From: a virus
Length of the DNA stretch: 16,031 nucleotides
Strand: one strand, 5' to 3'
IMG/VR virus record: IMGVR_UViG_3300045988_092906
Location: 1 to 16,031 of that record
In this document: positions 96 through 16,031 of the stretch, piece after piece
How positions within the stretch are numbered: position 1 is the first letter of the stretch
How the letters are laid out: each line of letters begins with the position of its first letter
The notes under the pieces: model-generated
Databases searched by the model: none
The model's input: only the letters and a program-made list of their open reading frames with translations
What the model was told of the DNA's origin: nothing
Program-made: the position numbers and the translations under genes

Positions 96-165
96 AATTA
101 TAGAAACAAGGAAACCTAGTAAATATAAGGAGGGAAAAAAGATACTATGAAAAGGAGGAATAAAA

Positions 166-1158: not shown

Positions 1159-1170
1159 GGAGGAAAAAAT

Positions 1171-1281: not shown

Positions 1282-1303
1282 AAATTTCTGCTACTAAATA
1301 TTG

Positions 1304-1990
1304 TTAGTATGTAATCATGTTATTTAATCTGCACCCAAAATAATTGTAAGGCGTAGAGGCGTTTGTATCATTAAAGACTACGTCACCATTAGTTTTTAGT
1401 CTGAATCCCTCAATTGCTAAGGTGCTTACAGCATTAGATTGGTCAACTACATTTCCAATAAAATCAACGTCTTTTGCAGGTGTAATATTTGGGATATTGA
1501 ATAAAACTCTTCTTGCTGAGCTACCACTTCCACCTAATACGGCGTTAAAAACAATAAGATGTGCTGTTCTATTAACACGGGCAATAACAGAGCCCGAATT
1601 GCCTGTAATTTCTTCCCACAAAGAAATATTATTGTTTAATTGTGCAATACTAGCTTGTGCGTCTTTTGCGTTATCATTTGCAACCGTTGCTGCTGCCTGT
1701 GCTTTTGAAATATTGCTATCTCTAGTTACGTTGCTAGAATTAATAGCGGAGACTGAGGATTGTAAATCGGAAATGTTCTTGCTATTTTGATTGGCTACTG
1801 TTGTTGCCTGTGTTGCTTTGGCTTCTGCGCTACCAGCTGTCTGATTAGCTGTTGTAGCTGTTTCTTGTACTTGATGAATACCTGCATCAATTTTAGACAT
1901 ATCAGAGTTATAATCTCCTAAATATGTCGGCTTGTCAGTACCAATGTACTGACTTAAATCATAGTAAGTTGTTTTGTTTGTTGAACTCAT
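1304..1990 (-). CDS. Tail fibre / receptor-binding protein, 228 aa
   Basis: Last gene of the late operon, with RBS AAGGAGGAG. The N-terminal YYDLSQYIGTDKPTYLGDYNSDMSKID motif is of the kind seen at N-termini of Firmicute phage fibres. An Ala/Gln/Asn/Ser-rich helical stalk is followed by a C-terminal globular part. Confidence 0.55.
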   Translation of the reverse strand: MSSTNKTTYYDLSQYIGTDKPTYLGDYNSDMSKIDAGIHQVQETATTANQTAGSAEAKATQATTVANQNSKNISDLQSSVSAINSSNVTRDSNISKAQAAATVANDNAKDAQASIAQLNNNISLWEEITGNSGSVIARVNRTAHLIVFNAVLGGSGSSARRVLFNIPNITPAKDVDFIGNVVDQSNAVSTLAIEGFRLKTNGDVVFNDTNASTPYNYFGCRLNNMITY

Positions 1991-2010
1991 TTTTGACTCC
2001 TCCTTAATAA

Positions 2011-2841: not shown

Positions 2842-2859
2842 TATATCACCTCCTTTTTT

Positions 2860-3567
2860 TTACCACACTTTTAGAAACAAATCTCTGCAAGCTTCTACAA
2901 GTTCTTTATTAATATTCTGTATTTGCTCACGATATTCTGCAATAGCTTCACTTGTTGATTTTCCTCTTAATCCTATCTCTTTTGTGTCTCTGTCTCTTTT
3001 GCTGTCTTTGTTGTCGTTTCCTGTATGTTTATTGTTTGCTGTTGTAGTCGTGTTATTGACAGTTTCGCCCCTACTCATAGCACTTGCGTAGTCTTGTGTA
3101 GCTACGGTGACTTGTGGATTGTCACTATCAATATTTTGGTAGTTTTGATTGTTTTTTACCTCGCTGTTTCCTGCATCTGTTGAGTTAGTTGTTGTTTTTT
3201 CATTTCCTTTTTCTGCTTCTGTGAATGTTACATATATATTTGTAAAAGGGTTATCGTTTTGAATTGCATTATACAGTTTTGTATAATATGGCGTCAATTC
3301 ATACATTTTTGCTATAAAAGCAGTTTTCCACATTCCTAGAGTTTCAAAACCAATATAATTATTCCAGTATCTTAACAAGAAATAGGTTTTAAAGGTGTAT
3401 AGGTCTTTTCTATCCTCTGAATAAAAAGGAAAATCAAAGTCAAAAAATTTGCTCTGTGTTTTATCGATTGTTCTTTGAACTGATAAGTCCATGCTCCACA
3501 ATTCCTGTTGCGGTATAAAACTTTCGCAAATGTCTTTTACAGTGGTAGTGTATTTACTCAATTTCAT
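2860..3567 (-). CDS. Lower collar protein (phi29 gp11 position), about 235 aa
   Basis: It lies directly downstream of the portal gene and overlaps it, and its size is similar to gp11. The central region is Asn/Thr-rich. The ORF-track start at 3570 is a GTG inside the RBS-like AGAGGGTG, so I prefer the ATG at 3567; the start remains uncertain. Confidence 0.5.
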   Translation of the reverse strand: MKLSKYTTTVKDICESFIPQQELWSMDLSVQRTIDKTQSKFFDFDFPFYSEDRKDLYTFKTYFLLRYWNNYIGFETLGMWKTAFIAKMYELTPYYTKLYNAIQNDNPFTNIYVTFTEAEKGNEKTTTNSTDAGNSEVKNNQNYQNIDSDNPQVTVATQDYASAMSRGETVNNTTTTANNKHTGNDNKDSKRDRDTKEIGLRGKSTSEAIAEYREQIQNINKELVEACRDLFLKVW

Positions 3568-4453
3568 CACCCTCTTTTCCTTTTTGCATATACTTGTCGG
3601 GGATATACCCGTTTAACATAGTAGGTAATTCACTATTGAAGTCCACCGACACATTAAGTCCCCATAATTTATTGATAGCTTTCGCGCATCTTCTTCTTAA
3701 TGTCAATCCAACATTTCGATTTGCTTCAACCTGTCCATTATTTCCTGCCGTTTCGCCAGTCACAAGGCGTTCACCTTTTTCTACTGGGTTGCTTTCATAC
3801 CCTAAAGAAGTTAATACTTGTGACCATAAATCCCTTAATTCCTGTTCGCATTTGTCTACTATGTAAGGCGCTCCCATGTTTAAGGCTTTAATGTCTTTCA
3901 AATTCAATGAATCTGAAACTTTAAGTACAGGCAAATAGTTATCGTACATTTCGCCTAATATTTCAAAGGACATTTTTTCATTATCAGAAGAAGAAAGTAC
4001 AACAGGTGTACGCTGTGCATACATATTAATACCTTTTGTTTTCCAAGTATTCGCCATAGCGTCTGCATACATTAATGCTTTGTAGTAGTATGGCATGGTT
4101 GAGTAATTGTTCCACAAGATACAACTATTTTCTTTCCCGTATTCTTCAATATAACCATTTGCCGTATAAGCAATTCTATCTTGAGGAATATTGTAAATAT
4201 CGGGCATACCCGAAAGTGTAACATTCATAAAAGCATACCCTGCAATATCATCCTTGATGAATACACCCAAACCACGCCAAAATAATGTTTGTTCAATGTA
4301 CATGGGCAATATTTCTTCGGGTAAGCCACGCCACTGGTATCTGTTTACAAATATATCGAAAATATCATAAAAATAAATAGATTTGATTATTTCAAAATCA
4401 TCTTTCATATTTTTATTTTTACATTTTTCAAAAACTCTTAAAGGGTTTCGCAC
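3554..4453 (-). CDS. Portal / upper collar connector (phi29 gp10-like), 299 aa
   Basis: Blocks match my recollection of phi29 gp10. These are YQWRGLP vs FEWENLP, NMYAQRTPVVL vs NQNAQKTPVLI, GAPYIVDK vs DAPYVVDK, EKGERLVTGE vs EKKERMVTDE, and INKLWGLNVSVDF vs INELYGLNVKVKF. GTG start at 4453 with RBS AAGGTGGTG. Confidence 0.85.
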   Translation of the reverse strand: MRNPLRVFEKCKNKNMKDDFEIIKSIYFYDIFDIFVNRYQWRGLPEEILPMYIEQTLFWRGLGVFIKDDIAGYAFMNVTLSGMPDIYNIPQDRIAYTANGYIEEYGKENSCILWNNYSTMPYYYKALMYADAMANTWKTKGINMYAQRTPVVLSSSDNEKMSFEILGEMYDNYLPVLKVSDSLNLKDIKALNMGAPYIVDKCEQELRDLWSQVLTSLGYESNPVEKGERLVTGETAGNNGQVEANRNVGLTLRRRCAKAINKLWGLNVSVDFNSELPTMLNGYIPDKYMQKGKEGDEIE

Positions 4454-4465
4454 GTTATCACCACC

Positions 4466-6082
4466 TTAATTATTTGACAATCCATAATTCCCTATGTCAT
4501 CAGTATGCCACAAAGTCACACCGTTGTCAAATATATTTCGCAATTTTTTTAATTGGTCTAAATCAATATCGCCTGTAAAACCACAATGTGATGTTTTTAC
4601 ATAATTCCATTGTGAACGAGAACGCAAATACGGTGTTGCAATTTTATTAATCGGATAACCAAATTGTTCGAAAAAACTATCTGCCATTTCAGCAAATTGT
4701 CTTTTGCACGACATTTCATAAAAATCAACACCACACTCTTTAATACCGGTCAACACATTTTCGGATAACGCTTTTCCATGTGTCACTCCTGCATTTCTCG
4801 CTCTGTCTGTCTGATTTGCTAACATTCCAAGAGCGTCCCAAAAAGCGTTCGTTGTTTTTCCTAATCCGTTAAGACCTCCTTGTAAACTTCCCCCAGCCAA
4901 TCCTGCTATTGCTGTTCCTGTTCCTATGGTAGCATCAACCGCTGTGTGAACTTGTGACAGAGCTATAGAACTTTTATTTTGCGCAAGCCATGCCCTGTAC
5001 GTATCAGAAGAAAAGGAACACATAGGAAAAGACGAGTTAATAAGCGCTTCATTCATTAGTCCGTGCCCTAATTCTTCGCGCGTCTTATAGTTTTTAGGCG
5101 CTGTGAGAACTTGTGGAAGTGTTGCAATTGTCCCGTAGCTGTCGAACTCAATCGACTTGTCTTGATTATAACTATATTCATACCTATAAATATGTGTGTT
5201 GCCTTGGTTATTATCAGCAAGACAAAATAACCACGGATAAGAATATAATTTTTTATTCTTCGGTTTATAACCCTCAAACACATTTTCGGATATCTGCATA
5301 CTTGTTATTTTTGGCTTAATTTCTTTTCCACCTAGTGCAAGCGTGCATAATTTTGGTGACATAAATAAACCTATAACAGCGTCTTGCGCTCCTTGGCTAT
5401 TATAATCTTGTAATAGCGTGTTTATTCCTTTTAGTCCATCATCTGTAGTAATATCATAATGGCCGATACTACCCCAACAGTACACTCCATTTTCCACTCT
5501 CCCCTCGAACCAACTTTGTTCCGTTGTACCACGTGTCACAAAAGCGCAACATTCAGTCGGTGTTAAGTCTAGTTTTTTATGCCGTGATACAATTGTCTCA
5601 CCTGTTTCGATATTAACAGGCGTTAAATTTACTCCTATCCCATCAGCACTTCTTGGGATATGATGATACTCTACAAAGCAAGGTTTAATATTCGCATCAT
5701 AAAAGTTATTCTGAAAAACATCAAGCGAAAAATTAATGCGTGTTGTTTTTTCAGACAACCATTCTATTGAATCGATAAAACAAAATACCCACTCGTTAGA
5801 AATGCCTGTATTCTGAAAAGCTAAATAATTGAGATTAAGTGCTTTCATTTCTGTGAACGGTACGCGAATGTCATAATTTCCTATTCGGATAGGCGCAAGA
5901 TGTGATAAATCAACCCCGTTGATATGTTTACGATAAGACTCTAAATGATTTAATAAGTCCTCTTTTGAGTTGTATAGTCTAACATGCTCGTATTCGTCCG
6001 ACCATGGCACTCCACTGTACAATCTTAATTTTGTTTCGGGGTTGCGTGGTGCAACCCCTCCCTGTGTTGGTAAATTTATCAT
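4466..6082 (-). CDS. Tail knob / distal tube protein (phi29 gp9-like), 538 aa
   Basis: The C-terminus FFEQFGYPINKIATPYLRSRSQWNYVKTSHCGFTGDIDLDQLKKLRNIFDNGVTLWHTDDIGNY closely parallels my recollection of gp9 ([37 protein letters not shown]...IFDNGITLWHTDNIGNY). The Gly/Ala-rich hydrophobic loop TGTAIAGLAGGSLQGGLNGLG resembles the gp9 membrane-active loop. Confidence 0.85.
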   Translation of the reverse strand: MINLPTQGGVAPRNPETKLRLYSGVPWSDEYEHVRLYNSKEDLLNHLESYRKHINGVDLSHLAPIRIGNYDIRVPFTEMKALNLNYLAFQNTGISNEWVFCFIDSIEWLSEKTTRINFSLDVFQNNFYDANIKPCFVEYHHIPRSADGIGVNLTPVNIETGETIVSRHKKLDLTPTECCAFVTRGTTEQSWFEGRVENGVYCWGSIGHYDITTDDGLKGINTLLQDYNSQGAQDAVIGLFMSPKLCTLALGGKEIKPKITSMQISENVFEGYKPKNKKLYSYPWLFCLADNNQGNTHIYRYEYSYNQDKSIEFDSYGTIATLPQVLTAPKNYKTREELGHGLMNEALINSSFPMCSFSSDTYRAWLAQNKSSIALSQVHTAVDATIGTGTAIAGLAGGSLQGGLNGLGKTTNAFWDALGMLANQTDRARNAGVTHGKALSENVLTGIKECGVDFYEMSCKRQFAEMADSFFEQFGYPINKIATPYLRSRSQWNYVKTSHCGFTGDIDLDQLKKLRNIFDNGVTLWHTDDIGNYGLSNN

Positions 6083-6103
6083 AGATATAAACCTCCATTA
6101 AAT

Positions 6104-7372
6104 TTACGCTTTTGTGAAACTTGCTGTTTTTGTGATAGTCTCGTTCGGTCTATAAATAGCTTTCAAGATAATAGTTCCTGTTTCGTCCGCTCCTGTATGA
6201 AGTAAATGTGTCCCTGGGATAACATAAGTCTTAGCTGACGTTGCACCGCTATCAACTTCCAATGTCACCAAATTCTGATGATATGTTCCCGTGCTACCTT
6301 TAACAGTAACTTCTACTTCCTGTGTCTGTCCTGCTGTGTATGTTCCTGCTGTTACTGACAAGGTTGGCGTTTCAACCACTGTGTCTGTGGTAAATACTCG
6401 AATTGGGTAGAACGGACTAGCACTGACCATTTCCACCTGTGTATAGAAGTAGTTCCATGAAAGCACATTTGCCAGTCTCTGGTCTGTCATTTCTTTGAAC
6501 TGGTCACGCACATTGAAGAATCGGACATCACACAAGACACCCTGAATAGCTGTGTTAGCGAATTTATCTACAATCACAGTCTGTACTTCCACTTCTGCTC
6601 TGTCCAAATGGAAAGCGTAAGCTAAAGCGTCAACACTGACCTGTGCGTTTACATTTGGGGTCGTTATCCAAATGAGATTGGACGGCATAGCGTGAGACGT
6701 TGCTCCTGCTGTGTTGTTTTCCGGTAATGGGAAACCAAACTCACCAACAGCTCTTTTTACTTCAATCAATAATTTTTTCGCTGTCGCTTCATCAACAACC
6801 GCGTCAACAGTCACTGCCGGAAGTACCTCTTTTTCATAACCAACATTAATCAAATCACGCATAGCAAGATACTCGTCCCAGTTCGCGGCTGTGATGGCAC
6901 TCTCCATTTTTGCCATAATCATGTCACGGATTCCATACTCGCTTGTAAAAGCTTTTCTCAAGTTGTCGTATGTCACAGTGACAGGGTACTGGATTTCAAG
7001 GTTTACATTGTGAAACACTGACATAATGTAGGATTGGTACTGCTGAAAGGCATACTTAAAGTCTGCCTGTGAGTCATACACGTGACCCTTGCACATATTT
7101 ACATATGTTTCCTCGTGTGTCTCCCCGTAACGCATTGGCTCTTTCTTGAAACGTGCTAACGGATTTCTCCACGCAATACTGTCTACGGTCTGCATACCAA
7201 TACGGTTAATTAATGACGGAACAATTTCGTTCCGAACAGGGGCAAAATTCAGAATGTTATCATAGACAGCCTGTAAATTGTCTGAGACTTCCACAGGCAA
7301 GTGGTTCTGAACCTCGAAAGAAAGCTCCTGTTTGACTGCTTTTAAAATGTTTTTATTTGTTGCGTCTGCCAT
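6104..7372 (-). CDS. Major capsid protein (phi29 gp8-like) with a C-terminal Ig-like domain, 422 aa
   Basis: [34 protein letters not shown] parallels gp8 [42 protein letters not shown] parallels LYWNYYYHV. The C-terminal ~90 aa are a Thr/Val/Gly-rich beta-type segment like the gp8 BIG2 domain. It follows the scaffold gene. Confidence 0.85.
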   Translation of the reverse strand: [422 protein letters not shown]

Positions 7373-7387
7373 TTGTTAAAACCTCCC

Positions 7388-7669
7388 TTATTCTGTTTTA
7401 CCATCAAAGTCCAAATCTTCGACAGTAATTTTTTCTTCTTTTTCGTCTTTCTTTTCTTCTCCGTCTGCATTAGTGGCGGATTCTTTCATGCGCTCTTTAA
7501 AGCGTTTTTTGTACTCACTTTCTAATTTCATATACTTGTCTTTCCATTCGCTGTCCGTTTCTCCACTTCTTTCGCTATCATAATTCTGTAAGAACTCAAT
7601 AGCGTCTCCGTGCTCCTCAACGTCTGCTACAGCGTCAATTAATTCGTTTAAAGCTTCATTAAAATCCAT
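7388..7669 (-). CDS. Scaffolding protein (phi29 gp7-like), 93 aa
   Basis: Small, acidic and helical, immediately upstream of the capsid gene. The C-terminal KITVEDLDFDGK resembles gp7 TITIEDLEAK. RBS AGGAGGAAT. Confidence 0.7.
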   Translation of the reverse strand: MDFNEALNELIDAVADVEEHGDAIEFLQNYDSERSGETDSEWKDKYMKLESEYKKRFKERMKESATNADGEEKKDEKEEKITVEDLDFDGKTE

Positions 7670-7711
7670 TCAGATTCCTCCTTTTTATTTATTACCCTTT
7701 TTACAGTTTCT

Positions 7712-7740
7712 ATTATATCACCATGGAAAGAAAAAGTAAA
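7712..7740 (-). promoter_or_regulatory. Candidate promoter for the structural (late) operon
   Basis: On the minus strand: TTTACT (7740-7735), 17-nt spacer, TGaTATAAT (7720-7712). It overlaps the tail-lysin stop codon, 43 nt upstream of the scaffold start. Confidence 0.45.
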
Positions 7741-8725
7741 GTGGCATTTTTCTTTTTCTTGAATGTGGGTGTATTGGGTACGGTGATAATGTTTGTAAGT
7801 AGGCATACCATTTTAACGCATTCTTTTTTCTTTCCTCTTCTTTTTCAACGCCTGCACGCTCGAAATTTTTTAAAAACACGGACGCGAGATAATCGGGTTC
7901 TTTTGTGGACTTTCGAAACTCTTCCCATGATATCGGATATTTCGTGGTCTCTATCCACTGTCCACTACTTGCTGTTTCTTCATCAAGCCAAACGCATTGA
8001 TAATACCCGTCTGTGATATCATAACCATGAGCGTTCGCCCAGTCTGTATAGTTTGTTGCGGGTGTCCATTGCACAAGACCATATCCACCATCATAGTTTC
8101 CCTCTTTTAATGACTGCCACAATCCAGGGTTGATATTAGATTCTATCTCTATATTCCCCAACATTCCTGCAATTGCATTTAATGTAAAATCTTTAAAAAA
8201 CATCGTGCTATAAAAAACATAGGCGTTATTTTTCATTTCATCTTCTGTAAGATATCTATTTCCATGTATCCATTCAAGGGGCATTCCTGCACTATCACCG
8301 TACCGATATAGTTTTGCCCATGCAGACGGTTTGGAAACGTAAGTATTAATGCTAACTTGTTCGGGCAAAGGATAGCGCCCACTATGTGCCCCCATAGTGA
8401 TACCACCCTGTCCTGCTCCTTCCCCTTGATACACCATTTCCGTATGACCACTTCTCCAAACGATATCCCCAGCCTGCCACGCTTCATTAATATCAATTTC
8501 TTTAAATCCTGCTTGTAATAGATACCCCTCTTCTGTTCTTGTTGTAAACCAAGGATTAACTGCAAAAAATCCGCCCTCTGTCAACGCTTTTGAAATAAAA
8601 GAGCTACAATCATAATAAGTAATACCGTTTACGGTCTGTCCGTACCGATATGCTTGTGAGTAACCGATATTTGGCGCATTACATGCATTTATCGCCCATT
8701 GGTATGATATATTAATATTTGGCAT
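7718..8725 (-). CDS. Tail-associated peptidoglycan hydrolase, 335 aa: N-terminal NlpC/P60- or CHAP-type peptidase plus a C-terminal phi29 gp13-type lysozyme domain
   Basis: The C-half [51 protein letters not shown] matches my recollection of the gp13 N-domain ([51 protein letters not shown]). The N-half has [12 protein letters not shown] ... [14 protein letters not shown], a Cys/His peptidase signature. Confidence 0.8.
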   Translation of the reverse strand: [335 protein letters not shown]

Positions 8726-8740
8726 TTCTTGTCACCTCAC

Positions 8741-8782
8741 AAAAAATGTTTCACGTGAAACATTTGTATTCACGTGAAACAC
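8741..8782 (-). terminator. Paired palindrome copies (full 8744-8765, degenerate 8769-8781) forming a hairpin plus U-tract after the endolysin gene
   Basis: Minus-strand RNA is GUGUUUCACGUG-13 nt-CACGUGAAACAU followed by UUUUU. That gives a 12-bp stem with one G-U pair. Alternatively it is two adjacent protein-binding sites. It lies 8 nt after the endolysin stop and directly before the tail-lysin RBS. Confidence 0.4.
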
Positions 8783-8789
8783 CTCATAA

Positions 8790-9641
8790 TTATTTTGTCG
8801 AATTTTTTTCGTACGTTTCTACGTCTGAACAAACCGCCTGCAAAATGCGTAAATCCCAAGGCGCTATATTATTGAATTCATAACAAGGTATATTGCGACC
8901 TGTACTGTCTAAATGAATCTTTTTTAAGATTTCAAGACACGCACCATCTTTAATGAGTCTGACTTTATCCCCATTGAACCAATACCAGTTACCACTTTCC
9001 GTATCTTTAAATAATGCATTCATACAATTAATACCCCCAATCATATTATTTATGATGTCATTAAATTCGCTTTTATATGTATAGTCTTTATACACATGGT
9101 TTACATCACATCTCCCGTTGATACCATCAACTCGCCCGTTACTGCTATACTGCCAAATATCAACGCCATTCATGCCTAATGAGTTTGAATATCGAGCAAT
9201 CCACAAATCATACCCCCATGTTTCGCCGATGTATTTCTCAAACCATGATTTACTGGCATAAATTCCTGCTTTATACCCATTAGTGTGCATCGCATCGCAA
9301 AAGCGCTTTGCGTTGTATTTTGCGACATATTGAGTGCCTTTTTCTTCGCTGTCAAAAAATACTGGTAGGGTAGGGTTATGTCCGTTTAGCAATCTAAGAC
9401 AGTGGTTAATCTCGCCCTCAATATTTGCTTTTGTTTTTGCGTATGAATAGAAATACACGCCATACGCTATAGACAGTCTTTCACATTCACGAACATTTCT
9501 TTCCCATTGTTCATCATCTTGTGATGTCTTATCTTGTCCATATCCGCATCTGATTATCACATAATCAACAGCGTTCTTTAACTTTTCAAAATCAACAACA
9601 CCATTGTGATAAGAAATATCAACAGCCTTTTTTACACACAT
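8790..9641 (-). CDS. Endolysin, GH25 muramidase N-domain plus an unassigned C-terminal (probably wall-binding) domain, 283 aa
   Basis: The N-terminus is typical of GH25 lysozymes: VDISYHNGVVDFEKLKNAVDYVIIRCGYG ... FDSEE ... LWIARY ... WQYSS. It follows the holin gene with a 1-nt TAATG overlap. Confidence 0.75.
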   Translation of the reverse strand: MCVKKAVDISYHNGVVDFEKLKNAVDYVIIRCGYGQDKTSQDDEQWERNVRECERLSIAYGVYFYSYAKTKANIEGEINHCLRLLNGHNPTLPVFFDSEEKGTQYVAKYNAKRFCDAMHTNGYKAGIYASKSWFEKYIGETWGYDLWIARYSNSLGMNGVDIWQYSSNGRVDGINGRCDVNHVYKDYTYKSEFNDIINNMIGGINCMNALFKDTESGNWYWFNGDKVRLIKDGACLEILKKIHLDSTGRNIPCYEFNNIAPWDLRILQAVCSDVETYEKNSTK

Positions 9642-9868
9642 TACTCTCCCTCCTTTTTCTGCTCAAATGTATCACAAATACGTTGAAGCGCAAGCGTGTT
9701 ATTGTTCAACGCTTCTGTAATATCTGCCATTTCCTGCTTATGTGCTTCATTCAGCTTGTCTAAGCGTTCATCGTTTTTATCTTCGCGATATTTCACGTAC
9801 CACATTGAAGCTATCGCAACAACTGTAGGAATGCCTAACGTGTTAATCATTGTCATGATTTCCTGCAT
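9641..9868 (-). CDS. Holin-like protein (BhlA/UviB-like architecture), 75 aa from the ATG at 9868
   Basis: One N-terminal TM segment (LGIPTVVAIASMWYV) is followed by a charged coiled-coil tail. It sits directly upstream of the endolysin and is coupled to it. RBS AAAGGAGGTGG precedes the ATG at 9868. The longer track ORF (to 9910) would run through the candidate promoter and has no RBS. Confidence 0.55.
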   Translation of the reverse strand: MQEIMTMINTLGIPTVVAIASMWYVKYREDKNDERLDKLNEAHKQEMADITEALNNNTLALQRICDTFEQKKEGE

Positions 9869-9888
9869 GATACCACCTCCTTTTTTAT

Positions 9889-9917
9889 ATAATAACACAT
9901 ATAAACACATTTGTAAA
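9889..9917 (-). promoter_or_regulatory. Candidate promoter of the lysis cassette
   Basis: On the minus strand: TTTACA (9917-9912), 17-nt spacer, TGtTATTAT (9897-9889). The holin RBS begins about 10 nt downstream of the -10, and the palindrome array abuts the -35. Confidence 0.5.
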
Positions 9918-9918
9918 T

Positions 9919-9956
9919 AAAAAATGTTTCACGTGAAACATTTTCACGTGAAACAT
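9919..9956 (-). terminator. Paired overlapping palindrome copies (24-bp perfect palindrome 9921-9944 plus partial 9942-9956) forming a hairpin plus U-tract
   Basis: Minus-strand RNA is AUGUUUCACGUG-AAAAUGUUU-CACGUGAAACAU followed by UUUUUAUUU. That gives a 12-bp perfect stem. It is positioned to end the transcript from the 10076-10104 promoter, and could equally be a tandem operator upstream of the holin promoter. Confidence 0.45.
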
Positions 9957-10069
9957 AATGCACGTTACAAAATAATCAAATCAAAGGGGACGCAAAACCA
10001 AAAATTGATATCAGACTACTTGTCTATGTGCGTGTATATCAATTACAATGTTCGTATTATTTTGGGTGC
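9957..10069 (-). ncRNA. Candidate structured non-coding RNA (pRNA-like?) next to the packaging ATPase gene
   Basis: A consensus promoter lies immediately upstream, and there is no RBS-preceded ORF. The predicted 5' end pairs with the 3' end. Plus-strand 10066-10070 GTGCA pairs with 9959-9963 TGCAC, and 10056-10064 ATTATTTTG pairs with 9968-9976 CAAAATAAT. There is an internal 9-bp hairpin (10003-10011 with 10036-10044). A terminator-like element follows at 9919-9956. Confidence 0.4.
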
Positions 10070-10075
10070 AATATT

Positions 10076-10104
10076 ATTATATCAAAGATATCTTAAATTG
10101 TCAA
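10076..10104 (-). promoter_or_regulatory. Consensus sigma-A-type promoter driving the ORF-free region
   Basis: On the minus strand: TTGACA (10104-10099), exactly 17 nt, TGaTATAAT (10084-10076). This is the best consensus match in the window. The -35 overlaps the palindrome at 10103-10122 by 2 nt. Confidence 0.7.
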
Positions 10105-10122
10105 TGTTTCACGTGAAACATT
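10103..10122. repeat. Copy of the conserved palindrome AATGTTTCACGTGAAACATT
   Basis: Perfect 20-bp palindrome. It overlaps the ATPase stop codon (10121-10123) on one side and the -35 of the downstream promoter on the other. Confidence 0.9.
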
Positions 10123-11167
10123 AAAAAGATATAACATCAAATATCATATCCTTACATTCTAAATTTTCAAATAATAGTAATCCTCTATTAAAATATTCGC
10201 GTAACATTGCTACAATATAATGCGTTGAGTTTACACGAATTGCCGTATTATCTATTACGTCGTTTTTTGTAAAACATATTCGTGTAGGGAAACTTTCGTC
10301 TGCCCCTGTTGCTATATACATAAAAGTGTCATATTTTCTTGCGTTATACATTTTCTCGTTAAATCTGATTGTACAAATATAACGTGATTGTCCTGTTGGT
10401 TTTCCAATTAAACAATCATTATCATTTAGATATTTATTTTCGCTCGCATATTCGTTATAAGATGCGCCTTGAAATGCTCGTGCAATGCCACTTTCCTTAT
10501 AGGCTGTTGAAGCATTTTCATTATAGGTTCGCTCAAATACCCAACCATCACCGCGCAATATTTTAGTGTTATATTTTAACATTTTATTGATGCCAAATAC
10601 ACTATAGTATGGGTTTAACAACGAGACGGTATTTGAAGCCATATATAGCATAACTCTACGATGTTGCTTCCCGTGTCCTGCACTAATAGTCGTAAGCAAA
10701 GATAAAAGCTTATTTACCTCATTCGTTAAATATACGTTATCCTCATCTTGATATTCGTCAAAAAATACAGAACGAATATTTACGAACAACCCACGCATTT
10801 TTTTATATTTTCTCGCAACGGATAAGGCTAAACAATATCCGCATGGCTCTTCGTTTAGAAATAGTTGAATCAATGAACCATTCATCAAACTCTTTTCAGT
10901 CATAACATACCCGTCAAATTTTTCAGATATATCGCCAAAATATGTGTCGGCACAATTCTTCATATCAACTACATTTCTATATAGATATATAAATTGGTTT
11001 TCGGGTCTATATTTATCTTTCAAAAAATCGGACACTTGTCTGCACTTGATAGAATAACTTTTGCCTGCCGTTCTATTCCCGTCAACAATATAAATATCGG
11101 GAATATTCCCATTTTTATCTTTTAAAGTTAATAATCTATCACAATGATAATAGCCATCATTTTTCAT
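10121..11167 (-). CDS. DNA packaging (encapsidation) ATPase, phi29 gp16-like, 348 aa from the ATG at 11167
   Basis: Walker A is GNRTAGKSY (gp16 GARGIGKSY) and Walker B is VFFDEY (gp16 IVFDEF). QFIYLYR parallels QFIYVRR, LTNEVNKLLSLL parallels IPNEVSALLNLM, and ASNTVSLLNPYY parallels LSNAVSVVNPYF. RBS TAGGAGGTG lies upstream of the ATG at 11167. Confidence 0.85.
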   Translation of the reverse strand: MKNDGYYHCDRLLTLKDKNGNIPDIYIVDGNRTAGKSYSIKCRQVSDFLKDKYRPENQFIYLYRNVVDMKNCADTYFGDISEKFDGYVMTEKSLMNGSLIQLFLNEEPCGYCLALSVARKYKKMRGLFVNIRSVFFDEYQDEDNVYLTNEVNKLLSLLTTISAGHGKQHRRVMLYMASNTVSLLNPYYSVFGINKMLKYNTKILRGDGWVFERTYNENASTAYKESGIARAFQGASYNEYASENKYLNDNDCLIGKPTGQSRYICTIRFNEKMYNARKYDTFMYIATGADESFPTRICFTKNDVIDNTAIRVNSTHYIVAMLREYFNRGLLLFENLECKDMIFDVISF

Positions 11168-11180
11168 TTTAACACCTCCT

Positions 11181-11200
11181 AATGTTTCACGTGAAACATT
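11181..11200. repeat. Copy of the conserved palindrome AATGTTTCACGTGAAACATT, abutting the ATPase RBS
   Basis: Perfect 20-bp palindrome located between the terminator (11208-11236) and AGGAGGTG (11179-11172). Confidence 0.9.
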
Positions 11201-11207
11201 TTTTATT

Positions 11208-11236
11208 AAAAAGTAGGGGTAGCATATTGCCACCCC
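11208..11236 (-). terminator. Intrinsic terminator after the p5-like gene
   Basis: Minus-strand RNA is GGGGUGGCA-AUA-UGCUACCCC (9-bp stem including one G-U pair) followed by UACUUUUU. On the plus strand the same position is an A-C mismatch, so the hairpin favours the minus strand. Confidence 0.55.
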
Positions 11237-11276
11237 CATTAAGAAATAGAGAATAAAACTTTCTCGCGTCGTTATA

Positions 11277-11627
11277 TTATAAAGTTGATACGTCCAAGGT
11301 GCAATTAATATAATCGCGTCCTGCTTTTGTCTTTCCGCTGATTTTAATGATAGAAAACTTTTCACCCTCCATCACATTTTCAATATCTTTCAATGACTGT
11401 CTAAATGTAGCAGACTGACCCGAATATACTTTTTTCTCTGGTGTGATAATACTCACAATTTCCTGCACATCGCCCTTATCCTTAATATCATCAAAGATAA
11501 TATATCCATCGACTGGGATTGATGCCCCGTCCTCAATGTTTTTTAAAGGCTCAATATCTGGTGCTGTAGTCATAAGATACTTCTCAACCTTTGTAAACTC
11601 TCTGCTCATTTCTTTAATTTCTACCAT
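11277..11627 (-). CDS. Putative single-stranded DNA-binding protein (phi29 p5-like), 116 aa
   Basis: RBS CAGGAGGTA. The size and position are as expected for p5. The pattern similarity to my recollection of p5 is loose: IVSIITPEKKVYSGQSATF vs VTTIFAADGSLYSAISKTV, and FSIIKISGKTKAGRDYINCTL vs FKVKVVQGTSSKGNVFFSLQL. This needs an HMM check. Confidence 0.4.
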   Translation of the reverse strand: MVEIKEMSREFTKVEKYLMTTAPDIEPLKNIEDGASIPVDGYIIFDDIKDKGDVQEIVSIITPEKKVYSGQSATFRQSLKDIENVMEGEKFSIIKISGKTKAGRDYINCTLDVSTL

Positions 11628-11651
11628 AATAATTTACCTCCTGTTTTCCTG

Positions 11652-11951
11652 CTAATCTTCCTTTTTCATTTCCTGTAATTCTGCTTCGGTGACAATTTTC
11701 TCGCTCTTAACATCTGAATTTAATAAGAACTGTTCATCTGTCATGACACGTTTTTCCAGTTTAAACTTGATATCAAGAATGGAAACAATATCGCCTTTGT
11801 GCTGTTTTTCAATCAAGATTTCTGCCTTTTCCCTTGTCTTGCAATTTGCTATTTTCTCATCAAAGCAATCTTTCTTGATTTCGCCTGTCTCCTTGTCCTT
11901 GTAAATTCTTTCAACAGATACTTCTGCCGTTACTAATGTCCTCGTAAACAT
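11652..11951 (-). CDS. Putative dsDNA-binding / histone-like early protein (phi29 p6-like), 99 aa
   Basis: RBS GGAGGAAAAAAG. It is small with an acidic C-terminal tail and precedes the p5-like gene, as gene 6 precedes gene 5 in phi29. Any sequence resemblance is weak (LVTAEVSVERI vs ITKTTVNVAKM). Confidence 0.3.
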   Translation of the reverse strand: MFTRTLVTAEVSVERIYKDKETGEIKKDCFDEKIANCKTREKAEILIEKQHKGDIVSILDIKFKLEKRVMTDEQFLLNSDVKSEKIVTEAELQEMKKED

Positions 11952-12022
11952 CTTTTTTCCTCCTTTTTTCTGCTTTCTTTGAGTGTGAATTGCAATGTAA
12001 TATGTTTATTTATTACACTATT

Positions 12023-12051
12023 ATAATAACACAACGACTAAATATAGTCAA
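12023..12051 (-). promoter_or_regulatory. Candidate promoter for the p6-like/p5-like gene pair
   Basis: On the minus strand: TTGACT (12051-12046), 17-nt spacer, TGtTATTAT (12031-12023). It starts 3 nt after the polymerase stop codon, in a 103-bp intergenic gap. Confidence 0.6.
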
Positions 12052-12054
12052 GTA

Positions 12055-13941
12055 TTATATTATAATTTTTTTATCTTTTTGTTCATGGATATTAAAGTCT
12101 TTATTTCTTAATACAATACCACCTTTCACGCGCTCTGCTTTCAAATTACAAGTTTCCATACTAAGACCAGTGGATAATTCTGAGATATCTCTCCCATCTT
12201 CCACAAACTTTCTTTTCGCTTGACTACTCATTCCACAAGCTTTTATATCAAGATAAGGTTCACAAGGCACATGATTCTCTTCAACAATATGTTCTGCATA
12301 AGTCTTTTGCCTTTCATAATAAGCAAAATCAAATGTACTTTCACATTTCCAACAACAAAAATTAGTAGGGTGTTCCACAACTTTATTCGCTTTATCAAGA
12401 CCTATCAAATGAATAGAATCAGTGTCGGCATAGCAAAATCGGTCATAATTAGCCATTGCGTGACGAATTGTAAAATTCATGGCATATGATGTAATAGCAC
12501 TCCCGATAGGGATATACCCTACTTTCTTATTATGCTCTTCATGTAGAATAAATCTAATAATTCCATCTTCATCAAGATAAGGCTCTTTATACGAGGAATT
12601 ATCAGACATAGCAAATTTGCCATAAAGATTATTTAAAAAGAGTTTAGCTTTTTGTCTTTTAAAGCCTTTTGATGTTCTTTTTTCTTCTCCGTATTTATTT
12701 ATATAATCGTCAAAAAACCCTTGTCTCGCGTAGAACCACACGTAATCATATATAACCAAATCAAAAATATCATAAGTTTCTTGAAATAATTCCCAATCAG
12801 TACAAGTCATTGTTATAGTAATATTAGTATCATGCATTTGTCCATCAATATCACGATAATATCTATAATATTCACCCTTATATCTGACATTAGAACTATA
12901 TAAATTTTCATTCGCCTTATATAATGCGTTATGTCTAATATGTAACCATGGAAATGCCCCTGCTTTTAACTGAAATCTACAATTGAAGCGGATAAAAAAA
13001 TATTTATTAGTAGAGCTTATAAGTTCATTAGGTGGCGCTCCCCTATGATATTCGCCATGTCCAAATGGGTATTTATTCCCACTAATACTATGCATCATAG
13101 ACGGGTACAAAGAGTTTACATCATATACCAAACCATTGCTCACCACCATGTGTGCATATCTTGGATTGACATAGCACCAACCACCGTGATATGATTTATG
13201 AATATAATCCCACTGATTCCACGATTCTGTAATAGATTCGTCAAGATAATCTTCTCTAATATCGGGGAATAACTTATCATATTGTTTACCATCATAAAAA
13301 CCTTTAAATTCTGATAAACAACATGAGCCTATGGTTAATTTATCATGCTTTTCATTAAACATCATTTCTAATGCTTCTTTTAAAACTAATACGTCATTTT
13401 CAATATATTTCTTTTCATTTTCTGATATCTCACAATAAGCATATCTTTCGCCCTCATAATTCATATCAAGCTTTTGGTGCTTCGTCCCAAATGATTTCCC
13501 GATATTTTTTAATGATGATGGCATAAGCTTTAAAGAATTTCGGATTTCTAAAAAAGTCTTATTCCATTTTAATTTAAGCCAATACCACGACCCCATATCT
13601 GATATACATGTTTGAAATTCTTTTGACCTCATTTCCTTGTCTTTACAATGTACCCATGTCCACCCCTCTTTTAACAGAAAATCTACTATAAAAGAACCGT
13701 CAAAAGCTAAGTTATGAAAATATAATATATTATTACCTTTCATAGTTAAAAATCTATTTAAAAAATCTCTTATCGAATGTGTGATTGTTACTGTCTCAGT
13801 ATCATCATATAAAGCCACGTCAGCGCCCGACCAAACTTCTGTAGTATCTTGTTTTTTATGATTTTCTTGCTCTACTTTTTCGCCCCATACTGTTGTCTCA
13901 AAATCACAAGCCCAAAAAGTGATATTCTTTTTACGTGGCAT
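12055..13941 (-). CDS. Protein-primed family-B DNA polymerase (phi29 gp2-like), 628 aa
   Basis: All signature motifs are visible: ExoI ACDFETT, ExoII HNLAFDGSFI, SLKLMP (S/TLx2h), ExoIII YIENDVLVL, motif A VYDVNSLYPS, motif B KAKLFLNNLYGKF, motif C YADTDSIHL and KxY RQKTYAE. It is colinear with phi29 DNAP as I recall it. I prefer the ATG at 13941 (RBS AGAGGTG 6 nt upstream) over the GTG at 13950, which lies within that RBS. Confidence 0.95.
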   Translation of the reverse strand: MPRKKNITFWACDFETTVWGEKVEQENHKKQDTTEVWSGADVALYDDTETVTITHSIRDFLNRFLTMKGNNILYFHNLAFDGSFIVDFLLKEGWTWVHCKDKEMRSKEFQTCISDMGSWYWLKLKWNKTFLEIRNSLKLMPSSLKNIGKSFGTKHQKLDMNYEGERYAYCEISENEKKYIENDVLVLKEALEMMFNEKHDKLTIGSCCLSEFKGFYDGKQYDKLFPDIREDYLDESITESWNQWDYIHKSYHGGWCYVNPRYAHMVVSNGLVYDVNSLYPSMMHSISGNKYPFGHGEYHRGAPPNELISSTNKYFFIRFNCRFQLKAGAFPWLHIRHNALYKANENLYSSNVRYKGEYYRYYRDIDGQMHDTNITITMTCTDWELFQETYDIFDLVIYDYVWFYARQGFFDDYINKYGEEKRTSKGFKRQKAKLFLNNLYGKFAMSDNSSYKEPYLDEDGIIRFILHEEHNKKVGYIPIGSAITSYAMNFTIRHAMANYDRFCYADTDSIHLIGLDKANKVVEHPTNFCCWKCESTFDFAYYERQKTYAEHIVEENHVPCEPYLDIKACGMSSQAKRKFVEDGRDISELSTGLSMETCNLKAERVKGGIVLRNKDFNIHEQKDKKIII

Positions 13942-13955
13942 TATAATCACCTCTT

Positions 13956-14663
13956 TTATTCTTTTTCAATAACAATATCCTGTTCTTGAAGAAATTCTTG
14001 AAAATCTTCTGTAGTGCTAAGCACACCCATTCTGTGCAAAATATTCCAAAAGACAGCATCAACTGTAGCTTTATCCATATATGGTTCGGTTGGAAATGCT
14101 TCGGGTTCTTTAGAATATGTATACGCAAATAACGCTCTTTCTTTATCTGATGCATTGTATAATAAAGCGTCTGTTTTTTCACGTAAATAATCAGCTGTTT
14201 TTGGTGCGAAACTTTCTAAAGAATCATACCATGAATCAATAATAGCTTCATAATCTAATACAGGTGTTGCTATATTAACTCTAATACCTTTCTTTAGTAT
14301 CATCTTTAATTCCTTTAATCCATAATCATGAATTCTTGCGTATTCCTGTTCTTGTGGTGTTAGTTTTATAAATATTCTATTTCTTTCAAGTGCTTTTTTA
14401 CGCCCGTACTCTTTAGCGGTTATTGCCTCGCCTGTAAGCATATCAATAACTGTCGCGTTTTTTCGTATTTCTTTAGCTGTCTGTTTTTTCAATCTTTCAA
14501 TAGAAGCTTGTGTTGGATTTTTAACACGCTTTATTATCTTTACTTGTACACCTTGTTTTTGCTGATTTCTAACACGTGCTAAATACTTATTATATTCTTT
14601 ATTGTATTGCTGTTGCAAAATAGAGGCTTTTGTGTGTTTCTTTTTTATTCGCTTATTTGCCAT
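13956..14663 (-). CDS. Candidate terminal protein (replication primer), 235 aa
   Basis: It lies immediately upstream of the polymerase gene, as in phi29 (gene 3 then gene 2), and its size is close to phi29 TP (266 aa). The N-terminus is strongly basic (MANKRIKKKHTK...RVRNQQKQGVQVKIIKRVK). The genome has ITRs and a protein-primed-type polymerase. I did not recognise direct sequence similarity. Confidence 0.55.
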   Translation of the reverse strand: MANKRIKKKHTKASILQQQYNKEYNKYLARVRNQQKQGVQVKIIKRVKNPTQASIERLKKQTAKEIRKNATVIDMLTGEAITAKEYGRKKALERNRIFIKLTPQEQEYARIHDYGLKELKMILKKGIRVNIATPVLDYEAIIDSWYDSLESFAPKTADYLREKTDALLYNASDKERALFAYTYSKEPEAFPTEPYMDKATVDAVFWNILHRMGVLSTTEDFQEFLQEQDIVIEKE

Positions 14664-14666
14664 GGT

Positions 14667-14861
14667 TTAATTGCCCTCCTTTTGTACTTTTCTTAACAAT
14701 AAGCCATGTGGAACACGGGTATACTCAATATAATCCCCCGCATGAATATCTAAGTCTTTGATTGCTTCTTTTGGGAGCATGACACGGGCGGTATAACCAC
14801 CCGAGCCACTTTTCGTGAACATTACTTTATAACGTAATAACGCATTTGTTAATTTTGCCAT
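14667..14861 (-). CDS. AbrB/SpoVT/MazE-type (looped-hinge helix) DNA-binding protein, 64 aa
   Basis: The pattern ARVMLPKEAIKDLDIHAGDYIEYTRVPHGLLLRKV fits the SpoVT-AbrB domain signature (xRVxIPKExRxxLgIxxGDxvEi...). RBS AAGGAGGAAAAAATATG. The first 33 nt lie inside the ITR. Confidence 0.6.
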   Translation of the reverse strand: MAKLTNALLRYKVMFTKSGSGGYTARVMLPKEAIKDLDIHAGDYIEYTRVPHGLLLRKVQKEGN

Positions 14862-14873
14862 ATTTTTTCCTCC

Positions 14874-15338
14874 TTATAAAATATTAAACACTTTCCACGT
14901 AAACTCTGAGAAATGTTCCGCTATAAATGATACAGAAGATAAGAACAAATATAATAAAAAGGTTGCCATGATTATGACTGATAAGACCCCTAAGAAAGAT
15001 GATATTTTTTCTAATTTGGTGTATGTCTCTTTTTCTTCTGTAGGTATTTGTCTTGTTATCCATTCTGTAGGAGTTTCATGCAATGTTTCACGTGAAACAT
15101 TATCTGAATCGATTTTATGATTTTGAAATGTCTCTATATAGTCTTTATTTCCCTTAGTATCAATGGTATAGGCTTCTCCATCAAAACCCACATAAATGTT
15201 TTTATTAGTATACAAATTTTCTACCCAGTAGGGTTCGTCTACAAATAAGGCTATGTAGTTGTTTAGTGAGTTTTCAGTGTGAAAGTCGTGTATTTCTACC
15301 CCAAAATCTGTGATATTATGTAATCTGTATTTAATCAT
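14874..15338 (-). CDS. Hypothetical early protein, 154 aa, with a C-terminal TM anchor (ITR copy 2)
   Basis: Translation identical to 694-1158. Confidence 0.7.
   Translation of the reverse strand: MIKYRLHNITDFGVEIHDFHTENSLNNYIALFVDEPYWVENLYTNKNIYVGFDGEAYTIDTKGNKDYIETFQNHKIDSDNVSRETLHETPTEWITRQIPTEEKETYTKLEKISSFLGVLSVIIMATFLLYLFLSSVSFIAEHFSEFTWKVFNIL
15082..15101. repeat. Copy of the conserved palindrome AATGTTTCACGTGAAACATT (mirror of 931-950)
   Basis: Read directly from the sequence: CAATGTTTCACGTGAAACATTATC. Confidence 0.9.
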
Positions 15339-15756
15339 TTTTACCTCTCCTTAAAAATCTTGAATAATATCTTGTTCCCCATATATTGTCTATAGAATTT
15401 AAAATAACCTCATATTTACTATAGTCTACGTCATTAATTTGTTGACATAATGTTGCTACTCTGCCCCATTGAATATGAAAACTATCTCTAGCATTATCAT
15501 ATAAACCCCCTAACACATCTTTAAAAAATTCAATTAATTCTACACTAATACTTGTACTAAATATATATAATTCATCTTTAATATAAAAACAATAACAAGT
15601 ATTATCTATTGAAGCCGTAACAATAGAATCTTTAGTGCTATACCTCTGCACTATTGTTAATAAGGATTCGTCTGTGTATAACGCCTCACTTCTAACTATG
15701 TGCCCTGTATTAGAATTAATTACAACGACTTTAACTCTATTAATTTCTTCGTTCAT
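15331..15756 (-). CDS. Hypothetical early protein, 141 aa (ITR copy 2)
   Basis: Translation identical to 276-701. Confidence 0.7.
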   Translation of the reverse strand: MNEEINRVKVVVINSNTGHIVRSEALYTDESLLTIVQRYSTKDSIVTASIDNTCYCFYIKDELYIFSTSISVELIEFFKDVLGGLYDNARDSFHIQWGRVATLCQQINDVDYSKYEVILNSIDNIWGTRYYSRFLRRGKND

Positions 15757-15866
15757 TTTTTATACCTCCTTTTTAACATAAAACCATCAACAGTGCTAGA
15801 CTTCATAATATCACAAAGTTCCTTACCAAAGCTATCCCATATTTTTTCGTCATATTTAATCTTCAT
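15753..15866 (-). CDS. Small hypothetical early protein, 37 aa (ITR copy 2)
   Basis: Mirror of 166-279 within the ITR. Confidence 0.45.
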   Translation of the reverse strand: MKIKYDEKIWDSFGKELCDIMKSSTVDGFMLKRRYKK

Positions 15867-15936
15867 TTTTATTCCTCCTTTTCATAGTATCTTTTTTCCC
15901 TCCTTATATTTACTAGGTTTCCTTGTTTCTATAATT

Positions 15937-15965
15937 ATAATACCACACGCTTGTTCGTTTGTCAA
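15937..15965 (-). promoter_or_regulatory. Inward-reading sigma-A-type early promoter in ITR-R, heading the replication operon
   Basis: Mirror of 67-95: TTGACA (15965-15960), 17 nt, TGgTATTAT. I found no other promoter before the polymerase gene. Confidence 0.65.
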
Positions 15966-16031
15966 GTATTTTTTCGTGCTTTTTTAATCAAAAGGGTGTC
16001 GTGCTCTCATTGGGAATAACGTAAGCCTTTT

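Follow-up and report, generated by a model that had tools for sequence, protein, structure and literature searches.

Directly downstream of its gene for a gp16-type DNA-packaging ATPase, a 16,031-nucleotide stretch of viral DNA (IMG/VR record IMGVR_UViG_3300045988_092906, positions 1 to 16,031; hereafter the window) carries on its minus strand a small non-coding RNA gene that is probably the counterpart, in a clostridial and gut clade of phi29-like phages, of the packaging RNA (pRNA) of phage phi29. An initial annotation, made from the sequence alone, had proposed a candidate pRNA-like RNA at this site, and the proposal is supported by what we describe below: a discrete RNA gene under selection, linked to the ATPase gene, that folds as a three-way junction with covarying helices and with a bulge complementary to a hairpin loop. 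As an RNA, and as a look-alike of pRNA, the window RNA is well supported; by analogy with phi29, it would serve in the packaging motor.

An RNA gene with its own promoter and terminator

The ATPase gene and the control elements that separate it from the holin gene are arranged as follows:

10121..11167, minus strand: gp16-type DNA-packaging ATPase gene (PF05894 Podovirus_Gp16, E 2e-29, almost full-length match)
10105..10120, no strand assigned: perfect 16-bp palindrome TGTTTCACGTGAAACA, whose 20-bp extended form (10103-10122) reaches the -35 box and the ATPase stop codon
10076..10104, minus strand: RNA promoter, TTGACA (10104-10099), 17-nt spacer and TG-n-TATAAT (10081-10076), an extended -10 element
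9918..9956, minus strand: intrinsic terminator, comprising half a palindrome, a spacer, a full palindrome (13-15-bp stem) and a T-tract
9889..9917, minus strand: separate holin/lysis promoter, TTTACA, 17 nt and TG-n-TATTAT (10/12, with TG), lying outside the RNA and delimiting it

The RNA promoter (TTGACA-17-TG-n-TATAAT at 10104-10076) is present where the initial annotation had placed the best promoter of the genome, and it is the sole match to consensus at 12 of 12 positions in the whole window. A start near 10069 had been proposed; the predicted start, G10069, coincides with the first base of the helix that closes the RNA. We compared the region with ~80 close relatives in IMG/VR, whose ATPases are 85-97% identical, and used ~75 of these for measures of selection and covariation. 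In the relatives the promoter hexamers are kept and the spacer between them varies, the stretch from the palindrome to the -35 box (10122-10099) is 99.5% conserved (78 relatives), and the ATPase-holin spacer is about 255 nt long in all ~80.

The 12-bp hairpin and U-tract said to follow the RNA do form a terminator, with a longer stem than described: 9956-9924 together with the T-tract was scored at 15 pairs, is built of 1.5 copies of TGTTTCACGTGAAACA and is 96.8% conserved in the relatives. The same design of a half plus a full palindrome is found at 8741-8781. Every one of the ~80 relatives also has a second promoter (TTTACA-17-TG-n-TATGAT) between the terminator and the holin ribosome-binding site, so that the structured RNA is bracketed by a promoter and a terminator of its own. 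This conserved promoter speaks against the RNA being only a long 5' untranslated region (UTR) of the holin gene.

The region had also been described as free of open reading frames (ORFs), and no minus-strand ORF lies inside the 110-nt core of the RNA. We rejected a coding role for the 66-codon ORF on the plus strand (9924-10124), which is mechanical: it begins and ends in palindromes, and indels of 1-2 nt break its frame in relatives.

The order of elements in the window (promoter, structured RNA, terminator, lysis genes) would suit a cis-regulatory leader, such as a riboswitch, an attenuator or a processive-antitermination RNA, that governs read-through into the holin and endolysin genes. Against such a leader, the holin gene has its own promoter behind the terminator, and no cis-regulatory family in Rfam scored above threshold; the gene order of more distant lineages, given below, bears on it further.

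The RNA core folds as a three-way junction

The minimum free energy fold of 10070-9915 has an energy of -40.1 kcal/mol (z = -4.3), and none of 200 shuffled sequences was as stable. All of the helices claimed in the initial annotation were recovered by this fold, at coordinates that were exact or within 1 nt. The parts of the RNA are:

9960..10069, minus strand: 110-nt RNA core with predicted 5' end G10069, a three-way junction like domain I of pRNA (fold stability, conservation and covariation)
10050..10069, minus strand: 5' strand of the A-like helix (GCAC, C, CAAAAUAAU, A, CGAAC), with its partner at 9960-9983
10036..10044, minus strand: 5' strand of the C-like helix, AAUUGAUAU, 9 bp with 10003-10011
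10026..10035, minus strand: 5'-side bulge, ACACGCACAU, counterpart of the right-hand or CE loop of pRNA; ACGCA (10033-10029) complements 9994-9990
10012..10025, minus strand: E-like hairpin, AGAC-AAGUA-GUCU plus G10012
10003..10011, minus strand: 3' strand of the C-like helix, AUAUCAAUU (fold and covariation)
10000..10002, minus strand: junction linker UUU (5-6 U at most in relatives), at the position of the U72-74 bulge of phi29
9988..9999, minus strand: D-like hairpin, GG-UUUUGCGU-CC, with loop UGCGU (9994-9990) complementing the bulge
9960..9983, minus strand: 3' strand of the A-like helix, containing the conserved UAAC that is the 4-nt side of the internal loop

The closing helix begins, as had been claimed, with GCAC/GUGC (10069-10066 with 9963-9960), a 1x4 internal loop and the 9 bp CAAAAUAAU/AUUAUUUUG (10064-10056 with 9976-9968), and it continues beyond the pairs first described for 4-5 more, CGAA(C)/(G)UUYG, which covary. 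A 5'/3' helix of 4+9+4-5 bp, with the 1x4 internal loop and a bulge, closes the three-way junction of the 110-nt core. What had been taken for a 24-nt loop is in fact a 10-nt bulge on the 5' side followed by a hairpin of 4-5 bp. The earlier inventory of the domain, right in the helices that it listed, had overlooked the GG/CC hairpin at 9999-9988, with the loop that complements ACGCA in the bulge.

The window belongs to a set of lineages that we call group 1. The 1x4 internal loop (C / U-A/C-A-C) is retained in all group-1 lineages, the loop motif CARGYAG of the E-like hairpin is conserved across them, and the GG...CC of the D-like hairpin is invariant. The D stem is longer in relatives, for example GGGUG/CACCC in lineage L080 and AACGG/CCGUU in Clostridium phage HM2.

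The core is under purifying selection and its helices covary

Column conservation in the RNA core among the close relatives is 0.954, as compared with 0.95-0.97 at first and second codon positions of the ATPase gene, 0.75 and 0.66 at third codon positions of the ATPase and holin genes, respectively, and 0.83 in the promoter spacer. RNAalifold returned the same fold for 73 distinct sequences, with 99.7% of cells paired. The helices proposed in the initial annotation covary in these relatives: compensatory double changes occur in 7 core pairs, versus 2.2 in column shuffles and at most 2 in controls with slid partners. Within the A helix, alignment columns 3-113 vary as GC/UA, 10-103 as AU/GC and 18-96 as GC/AU/GU; examples of compensatory variants include GCAC/GUGC to GUAC/GUAC, CAAGAUAAU/AUUAUCUUG, and CGAA/UUCG to CAAA/UUUG. 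The E helix shows a double compensatory change from AGAC/GUCU to GAAC/GUUC in three lineages (L010, L013 and L052). Many of the variants give G-U pairs, which are C-A mismatches on the plus strand, indicating that the minus-strand RNA is the selected molecule. The core is under purifying selection, with covariation of its helices.

These patterns bear on the idea that the locus acts as DNA, through operator palindromes, promoters or a packaging or replication signal, and that the RNA fold is incidental. The 16-bp palindrome does stand on both flanks of the core, is found again at gene boundaries and, in one copy, directly adjoins the -35 box. The palindromes fall outside the 110-nt core, however, and the core itself varies by compensatory changes and strand-specific G-U pairs; moreover, other lineages replace the core sequence entirely yet keep the fold. 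We therefore regard an element acting purely as DNA as very improbable.

The RNA follows the ATPase gene across lineages

All lineages examined, including the Clostridium phages HM2 and CS229P1, have the RNA behind the ATPase gene, to as little as about 36% ATPase identity. We searched with two covariance models, one of the window's clade (R1) and one from an alignment of a second group of RNAs (group 2; R2). R1 matches directly after the ATPase stop codon in a clade with 58% identity (L080 and ~15 others), in L115, L117 and L131, and in HM2. The helices of these lineages are rebuilt out of wholly different sequences, the C helix, for instance, reading AAUUGAUAU/AUAUCAAUU in the window, CCGCGCCCGG/CCGGGGCGG in L080 and CAAUCUCG/CGAGAUUG in L117.

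Group 2, in which the ATPase is about 40% identical and which includes CS229P1, has an RNA of 107-113 nt whose first bases, UAUC(U), lie at the ATPase stop codon or overlap it; its last bases are (A)GAUA, and a terminator comes next. R2 has a match in each of the ~30 group-2 loci, without exception immediately downstream of the ATPase gene. In an alignment of 17 group-2 RNAs made with MAFFT from sequence only, 16 of the 21 nested pairs show compensatory changes, and nested-pair covariation is 0.51 as compared with 0.16 for shuffled and at most 0.15 for slid pairs.

The two groups share one order of elements from 5' to 3': a long, bulged 5'/3' helix; a helix of 5-12 bp; a bulge of 6-11 nt on the 5' side only; a hairpin of 3-6 bp; the return strand; a short linker, U-rich in the window's clade; a short, G-C-rich hairpin with a 7-9-nt loop; and the 3' strand of the long helix. 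Conservation is highest at the distal end of the A helix: group 1 has G(C/U)UCCCC...ACGG(G/A)C there, together with the 1x4 internal loop, and group 2 has UAUCU...AGAUA and a bulge of 3 nt.

In CS229P1 the ATPase gene and the RNA stand alone as a plus-strand unit amid minus-strand genes, and behind them come a bidirectional terminator and a convergent gene. This arrangement indicates that the constant link is to the ATPase gene and not to any downstream gene. A leader for read-through would have nothing downstream to regulate in group 2, and the conserved neighbor of the RNA is the upstream ATPase gene. The gene order of group 2, which does not place the RNA in a 5' UTR, largely refutes a riboswitch or attenuation leader, and we consider any cis-regulatory leader highly unlikely.

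No room for an RNA is left after the ATPase gene in Clostridium perfringens phage phiCP7R, Eggerthella phage LE1-1, Clostridium phage CI55P1, Enterococcus phage CUB-FM or Streptococcus phage Cp-1. The ATPase-linked RNA family is restricted to one clade.

Three local arrangements were seen around the RNA. In L134 (2547-3343) an extra ORF stands between the ATPase gene and the RNA, which lies ~650 nt further downstream and is intact. In L055 (5045-5272) there is a 175-nt partial duplication of the ATPase 3' end, the palindrome and the promoter, and the RNA is again intact. In the window itself, the group-2 motif UAUCU...AGAUA brackets the palindrome and the -35 region (10089-10131, minus strand; R2, 15.9 bits, E 0.44), which may be fortuitous or may be the remnant of an arrangement like that of group 2.

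The bulge and the D loop are complementary in every lineage

In every lineage, the bulge contains 4-6 nucleotides that match the second hairpin's loop by Watson-Crick complementarity, and about 20 differing sequence pairs realize this complementarity, among them the following (bulge / loop):

Window: ACGCA / UGCGU
L080: CGUUA / UAACG
L115: GUACA / UGUAC
L117: UCACA / UGUGA
L132: GGAUA / UAUCC
L135: AGACA / UGUCU
L128: GAAUCA / UGAUUC
HM2: GUAGU / ACUAC
CS229P1: CUGUA / UACAG
L165: UAGGA / UCCUA
L163: AACC / GGUU

In sequence-only alignments, the bulge and loop columns are 91% paired in group 1 including the window, with compensatory changes in 5 of 5 column pairs, and 89% paired in group 2, with such changes in 4 of 5. 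Covariation of the group-1 pairs is 0.76, as compared with 0.29 when shuffled and at most 0.17 when slid. The group-1 alignment is out of register between clades in the A and D helices, and we therefore used it for the E helix and the bulge and loop only. Across 29 lineages, the duplex between a bulge and its cognate downstream region averages -4.9 kcal/mol versus -3.5 kcal/mol for non-cognate combinations, and not one of 20,000 permutations gave so low a value. When the C/E arm was parsed automatically from raw downstream sequence, terminators were chosen, and with the parse restricted to the extents of the RNAs 5 of the 29 arms were mis-parsed; the permutation test was significant both with and without hand correction of the parsed arms. 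The first version of the parse recovers the known AACC/GGUU pair of phi29. The right-hand bulge and the left-hand loop are thus complementary and covary between phages.

Comparison with the pRNA of phi29

The Rfam model of pRNA, RF00044, located the pRNA of phi29 at 201-318 of its genome with 145 bits as a positive control. Set side by side, the elements of the two RNAs are:

A helix: present in phi29, present in the window
C helix: 9 bp in phi29, 9 bp in the window
5'-side bulge: 9 nt in phi29, 9-10 nt in the window
E helix: 4 bp in phi29, 4-5 bp in the window
E loop: 6 nt in phi29, 5 nt in the window
Junction linker: UUU in phi29, UUU in the window
D hairpin: 6 bp with a 5-nt loop in phi29, GG/CC with an 8-nt loop in the window
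Core length: 117 nt in phi29, 110 nt in the window

The C helix, the 5'-side bulge, the E hairpin and then the D hairpin follow one another in the same order and at similar sizes. The likeness extends to the known Bacillus pRNAs in general (phi29, GA-1, B103/Nf, SF5 and Goe4/DLc1/LY3): these, too, belong to protein-primed podoviruses with a gp16 ATPase and a gp10 connector, have a core of ~110-120 nt with identical element order and near-identical element sizes, and have a bulge and a D loop that are complementary (over 4-6 nt here) and covary between lineages. In phi29 the right-hand loop pairs with the left-hand D loop of a neighboring molecule to build a ring on the prohead, and loop covariation is regarded as a hallmark of the family (PMC12670572). 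The phi29 gene resembles those of the window's clade in having a strong promoter of its own and a 3' terminator hairpin, and the 174-nt phi29 transcript carries a 3' hairpin domain beyond the core, as does the window RNA, in which that domain is the terminator.

There are differences as well. The loop pairing of the Bacillus phages is based on GG/CC and spans 2-4 bp (PMC12670572), whereas here it spans 4-6 bp and is often AU-rich. The D helix is very short here (2-5 bp), and the single-stranded joints at the junction are longer than in Bacillus pRNAs. The hosts are Clostridia here, as opposed to Bacillus for the known pRNAs, and the group-2 RNAs, unlike those of Bacillus phages, have no promoter of their own.

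The known proposals of pRNA outside Bacillus phages resemble ours in that a pRNA-like RNA was predicted from secondary structure in a non-Bacillus virus. The present family differs in being backed by covariation over dozens of lineages and not by one predicted fold. For Streptococcus phage Cp-1, a pRNA was put forward by Martin et al. (1996, cited in PMC6266182), of which we found no demonstration; covariance models of Bacillus pRNAs are described as failing to find it (PMC6266182). Since the Cp-1 ATPase gene overlaps the holin gene and leaves no room between them, any Cp-1 RNA must lie elsewhere. Detection of pRNA in archaeal ampullaviruses is also mentioned (PMC7672431).

Weighing a pRNA against another structured RNA

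Several observations weigh against a pRNA. The gene lies directly downstream of the ATPase gene in the window's family, unlike in phi29, where the pRNA gene stands at the left genome end (201-318) behind promoter A1 and gene 16 is at 16244-17242, 16 kb away. Adjacency to the ATPase gene is therefore a mark of the window's family and not of phi29, and of the pRNA features that the initial annotation had listed, size and the closing 5'/3' helix hold whereas this adjacency does not. The D helix has just 2 bp in the window's clade. The scan with RF00044, a check that had been suggested with the initial annotation, gave no hit in the window at the gathering score, nor any at E <= 10 in 9600-10400, seven relatives or a single group-2 RNA. 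R2, with filters off, detected neither phi29 pRNA nor the window RNA, and R1 and R2 do not cross-detect group 1 and group 2; a common origin of the two groups and the Bacillus pRNAs is thus unproven. The group-2 RNAs (L081-L083, L138-L165) have no sigma-70-like promoter of their own, the best matches reaching 5-9 of 12 positions, and together with their start at the ATPase stop codon this means that they may be made as the 3' end (3' UTR) of the ATPase mRNA. Finally, the pairing of bulge and loop could equally be explained as an intramolecular pseudoknot, for which linkers of 2 and 8 nt would be sterically acceptable in the H-type form.

The failure of the Rfam model is put in perspective by RF00044 (gathering score 100 bits) also missing Bacillus cereus phage vB_BceP_LY3 (L167), a member of a group for which pRNA is accepted (PMC12670572, PMC6266182). 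The curated model is narrow, and its failure says little about function; homology is still unproven. Nor did the Rfam scans of the window, its relatives and the group-2 RNA find any other credible family, the top match being gltS at 25.9 bits against a gathering score of 47.5.

The main rival reading is a different kind of molecule, namely a structured small RNA or an element of the ATPase mRNA 3' UTR that is held by an intramolecular pseudoknot and has a role other than bridging prohead and ATPase. Possibilities include control of ATPase synthesis or mRNA stability, sequestration of a host or phage protein, and counter-defence. The topology fits a three-way junction locked by a pseudoknot, group-2 RNAs begin at the ATPase stop codon without a recognizable promoter, and no homology to pRNA was found. 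Precedents for such a lock are the tetrahydrofolate (THF) riboswitch type and the Alu domain of the signal recognition particle (SRP) RNA, which are three-way junctions locked by an intramolecular pseudoknot between a loop and a bulge. They share with the window RNA both the junction and the Watson-Crick pairing of a loop to a distant loop or bulge, but they are cellular cis-regulatory or ribonucleoprotein domains, whereas the window RNA is phage-encoded, stand-alone and linked to an ATPase gene, and no family of the THF-riboswitch or SRP-Alu type matched it in Rfam scans. Three further observations argue against another role. The helix lengths from the junction to the pairing sites match those of phi29, in which pairing is intermolecular (PMC12670572); the RNA is found only in phi29-like phages and stays at the ATPase gene through rearrangements; and the very strong promoter of the group-1 gene is a misfit for a UTR. 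On this evidence we judge a role other than bridging unlikely.

A proposed mechanism for the window RNA

If the RNA is the counterpart of pRNA, we infer that it binds the prohead, pairs with its neighbors through bulge and loop, forms a ring, docks the ATPase and is required for packaging. In this proposal, host RNA polymerase would start at G10069 and stop at the palindrome terminator, giving a transcript of ~150 nt whose first 110 nt would fold as the three-way junction. Near the junction, the D hairpin and the bulged C/E arm would attach to the empty prohead at its portal vertex. There, neighboring RNAs would join bulge to D loop (ACGCA with UGCGU) and so make a ring around the connector. 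The steric reasons for pairing between molecules in phi29 should hold here as well, since the helices that separate the junction from the pairing sites are as long as in phi29. The long 5'/3' helix would point outward, its conserved distal end (G-C/U-UCCCC...ACGGGC, with the 1x4 internal loop) docking the gp16-type ATPase, which would then pump DNA capped by terminal protein.

The connector that such an RNA would surround has 5 basic residues among the first 15 of its N-terminus, a weak hint of RNA binding at the prohead. For group 2, production of the RNA as the 3' end of the ATPase mRNA would couple synthesis of RNA and ATPase in cis.

The virus and its genome

The window resembles a complete genome of a phi29-like podovirus, with perfect inverted terminal repeats (ITRs) of 1,203 bp that are 100% identical (1-1203 and 14829-16031). 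Its minus-strand genes encode a type-B protein-primed DNA polymerase, the gp16-type encapsidation ATPase, a holin-like protein, a GH25 endolysin, a tail lysozyme, a phi29-type major capsid protein, a tail knob protein and a gp10-type connector, and Pfam matches among the window proteins are PF03175, PF05894, PF05352, PF25622 and PF20934. The start of the ATPase gene at 11167 is preceded by the ribosome-binding site AGGAGGTG. As in the phages known to use pRNA, a protein-primed polymerase B, a nuclease-less gp16 packaging ATPase and a gp10-type connector are found together in a phi29-like podovirus.

A near-identity DNA search of phage GenBank records found no close phage. By ATPase, the closest cultured relatives are Clostridium phages CS229P1-3 (host Clostridium_Q symbiosum) and HM2; identity is 36-39% to these and to human faecal contigs, and about 25-28% to Bacillus phages. 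Among bacterial genome assemblies, the sole match is a 13-kb contig binned in a metagenome-assembled genome of an uncultured member of the Clostridia.

The ITRs are very long for a phi29-like phage and hold two ORFs as well as a promoter (11/12) that fires inward. A direct repeat (96%) of the terminal 56 nt lies at the inner edge of the left repeat (8-63 versus 1195-1250), so that the unique part starts with an end-like sequence. The arrangement looks like the outcome of copying the right-terminal 1.2 kb onto an older left end with a short ITR, and it is alternatively a possible assembly effect. A strong 15-bp terminator at 1246-1281 (minus strand) marks the end of the long minus-strand gene block, inside the unique region adjoining the left ITR.

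The palindrome TGTTTCACGTGAAACA occurs in 6 exact copies in the genome, versus 0.14 expected (933-948, 8747-8762, 9925-9940, 10105-10120, 11183-11198 and 15084-15099), along with half copies at 8766-8781 and 9940-9955. The copies lie mostly at gene boundaries, the two in the ITRs falling within a listed ORF. Among distant relatives, it stands directly after the ATPase stop codon in CS229P1, within a terminator loop in L082, after the RNA terminator in L151, L152, L154 and L161, and as three tandem copies in the holin 5' UTR of the L080 clade; HM2 carries a symmetric variant, TGTTCCAC...GTGGAACA. The palindrome is likely to serve a conserved regulator as its operator, to be a hairpin terminator module that is used repeatedly, or both.

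Significance of an ATPase-linked RNA family

The pRNA has been regarded as unique to phi29 and related Bacillus phages for nearly 40 years. A 2024 review describes it, to current knowledge, in the same terms (PMC11476376), and a 2025 survey with Infernal, seeded with phi29, GA1 and DLc1, added 12 new pRNAs, those that are named coming from Bacillus phages (PMC12670572). In our literature search, we came across no ATPase-linked family resembling pRNA in phages of clostridia or of the gut. In Picovirinae-like genomes from the gut, the "intergenic" stretch of ~110 nt that follows the ATPase gene merits annotation as an RNA gene.

The family occurs in cultured Clostridium phages (HM2 and CS229P1), which makes docking of gp16-type ATPases on the prohead directly testable, and it bears on how the nuclease-less gp16-type ATPases of other phi29-like phages dock there. 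It also supplies independent data on the essential features of pRNA, namely helix lengths, a U-rich junction, the pairing of bulge and loop and the conserved distal end of the A helix. RNA nanotechnology would gain from it many natural three-way junctions and pairs of interlocking loops that are new. Whether pRNA is ancestral or was recruited, a question discussed in PMC7672431, is likewise touched by these findings.

On balance, we lean towards the view that RNA-bridged motors extend beyond the Bacillus phages, in the form of a second lineage of prohead RNA that is unrecognizable by sequence and is the 3' neighbor, or even the 3' UTR, of the ATPase gene in phi29-like phages of clostridia and the human gut. 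If this view is correct, pRNA would be either ancestral to the protein-primed podoviruses or convergently reinvented among them, and the family would offer more than 20 natural loop specificities of 4-6 bp.

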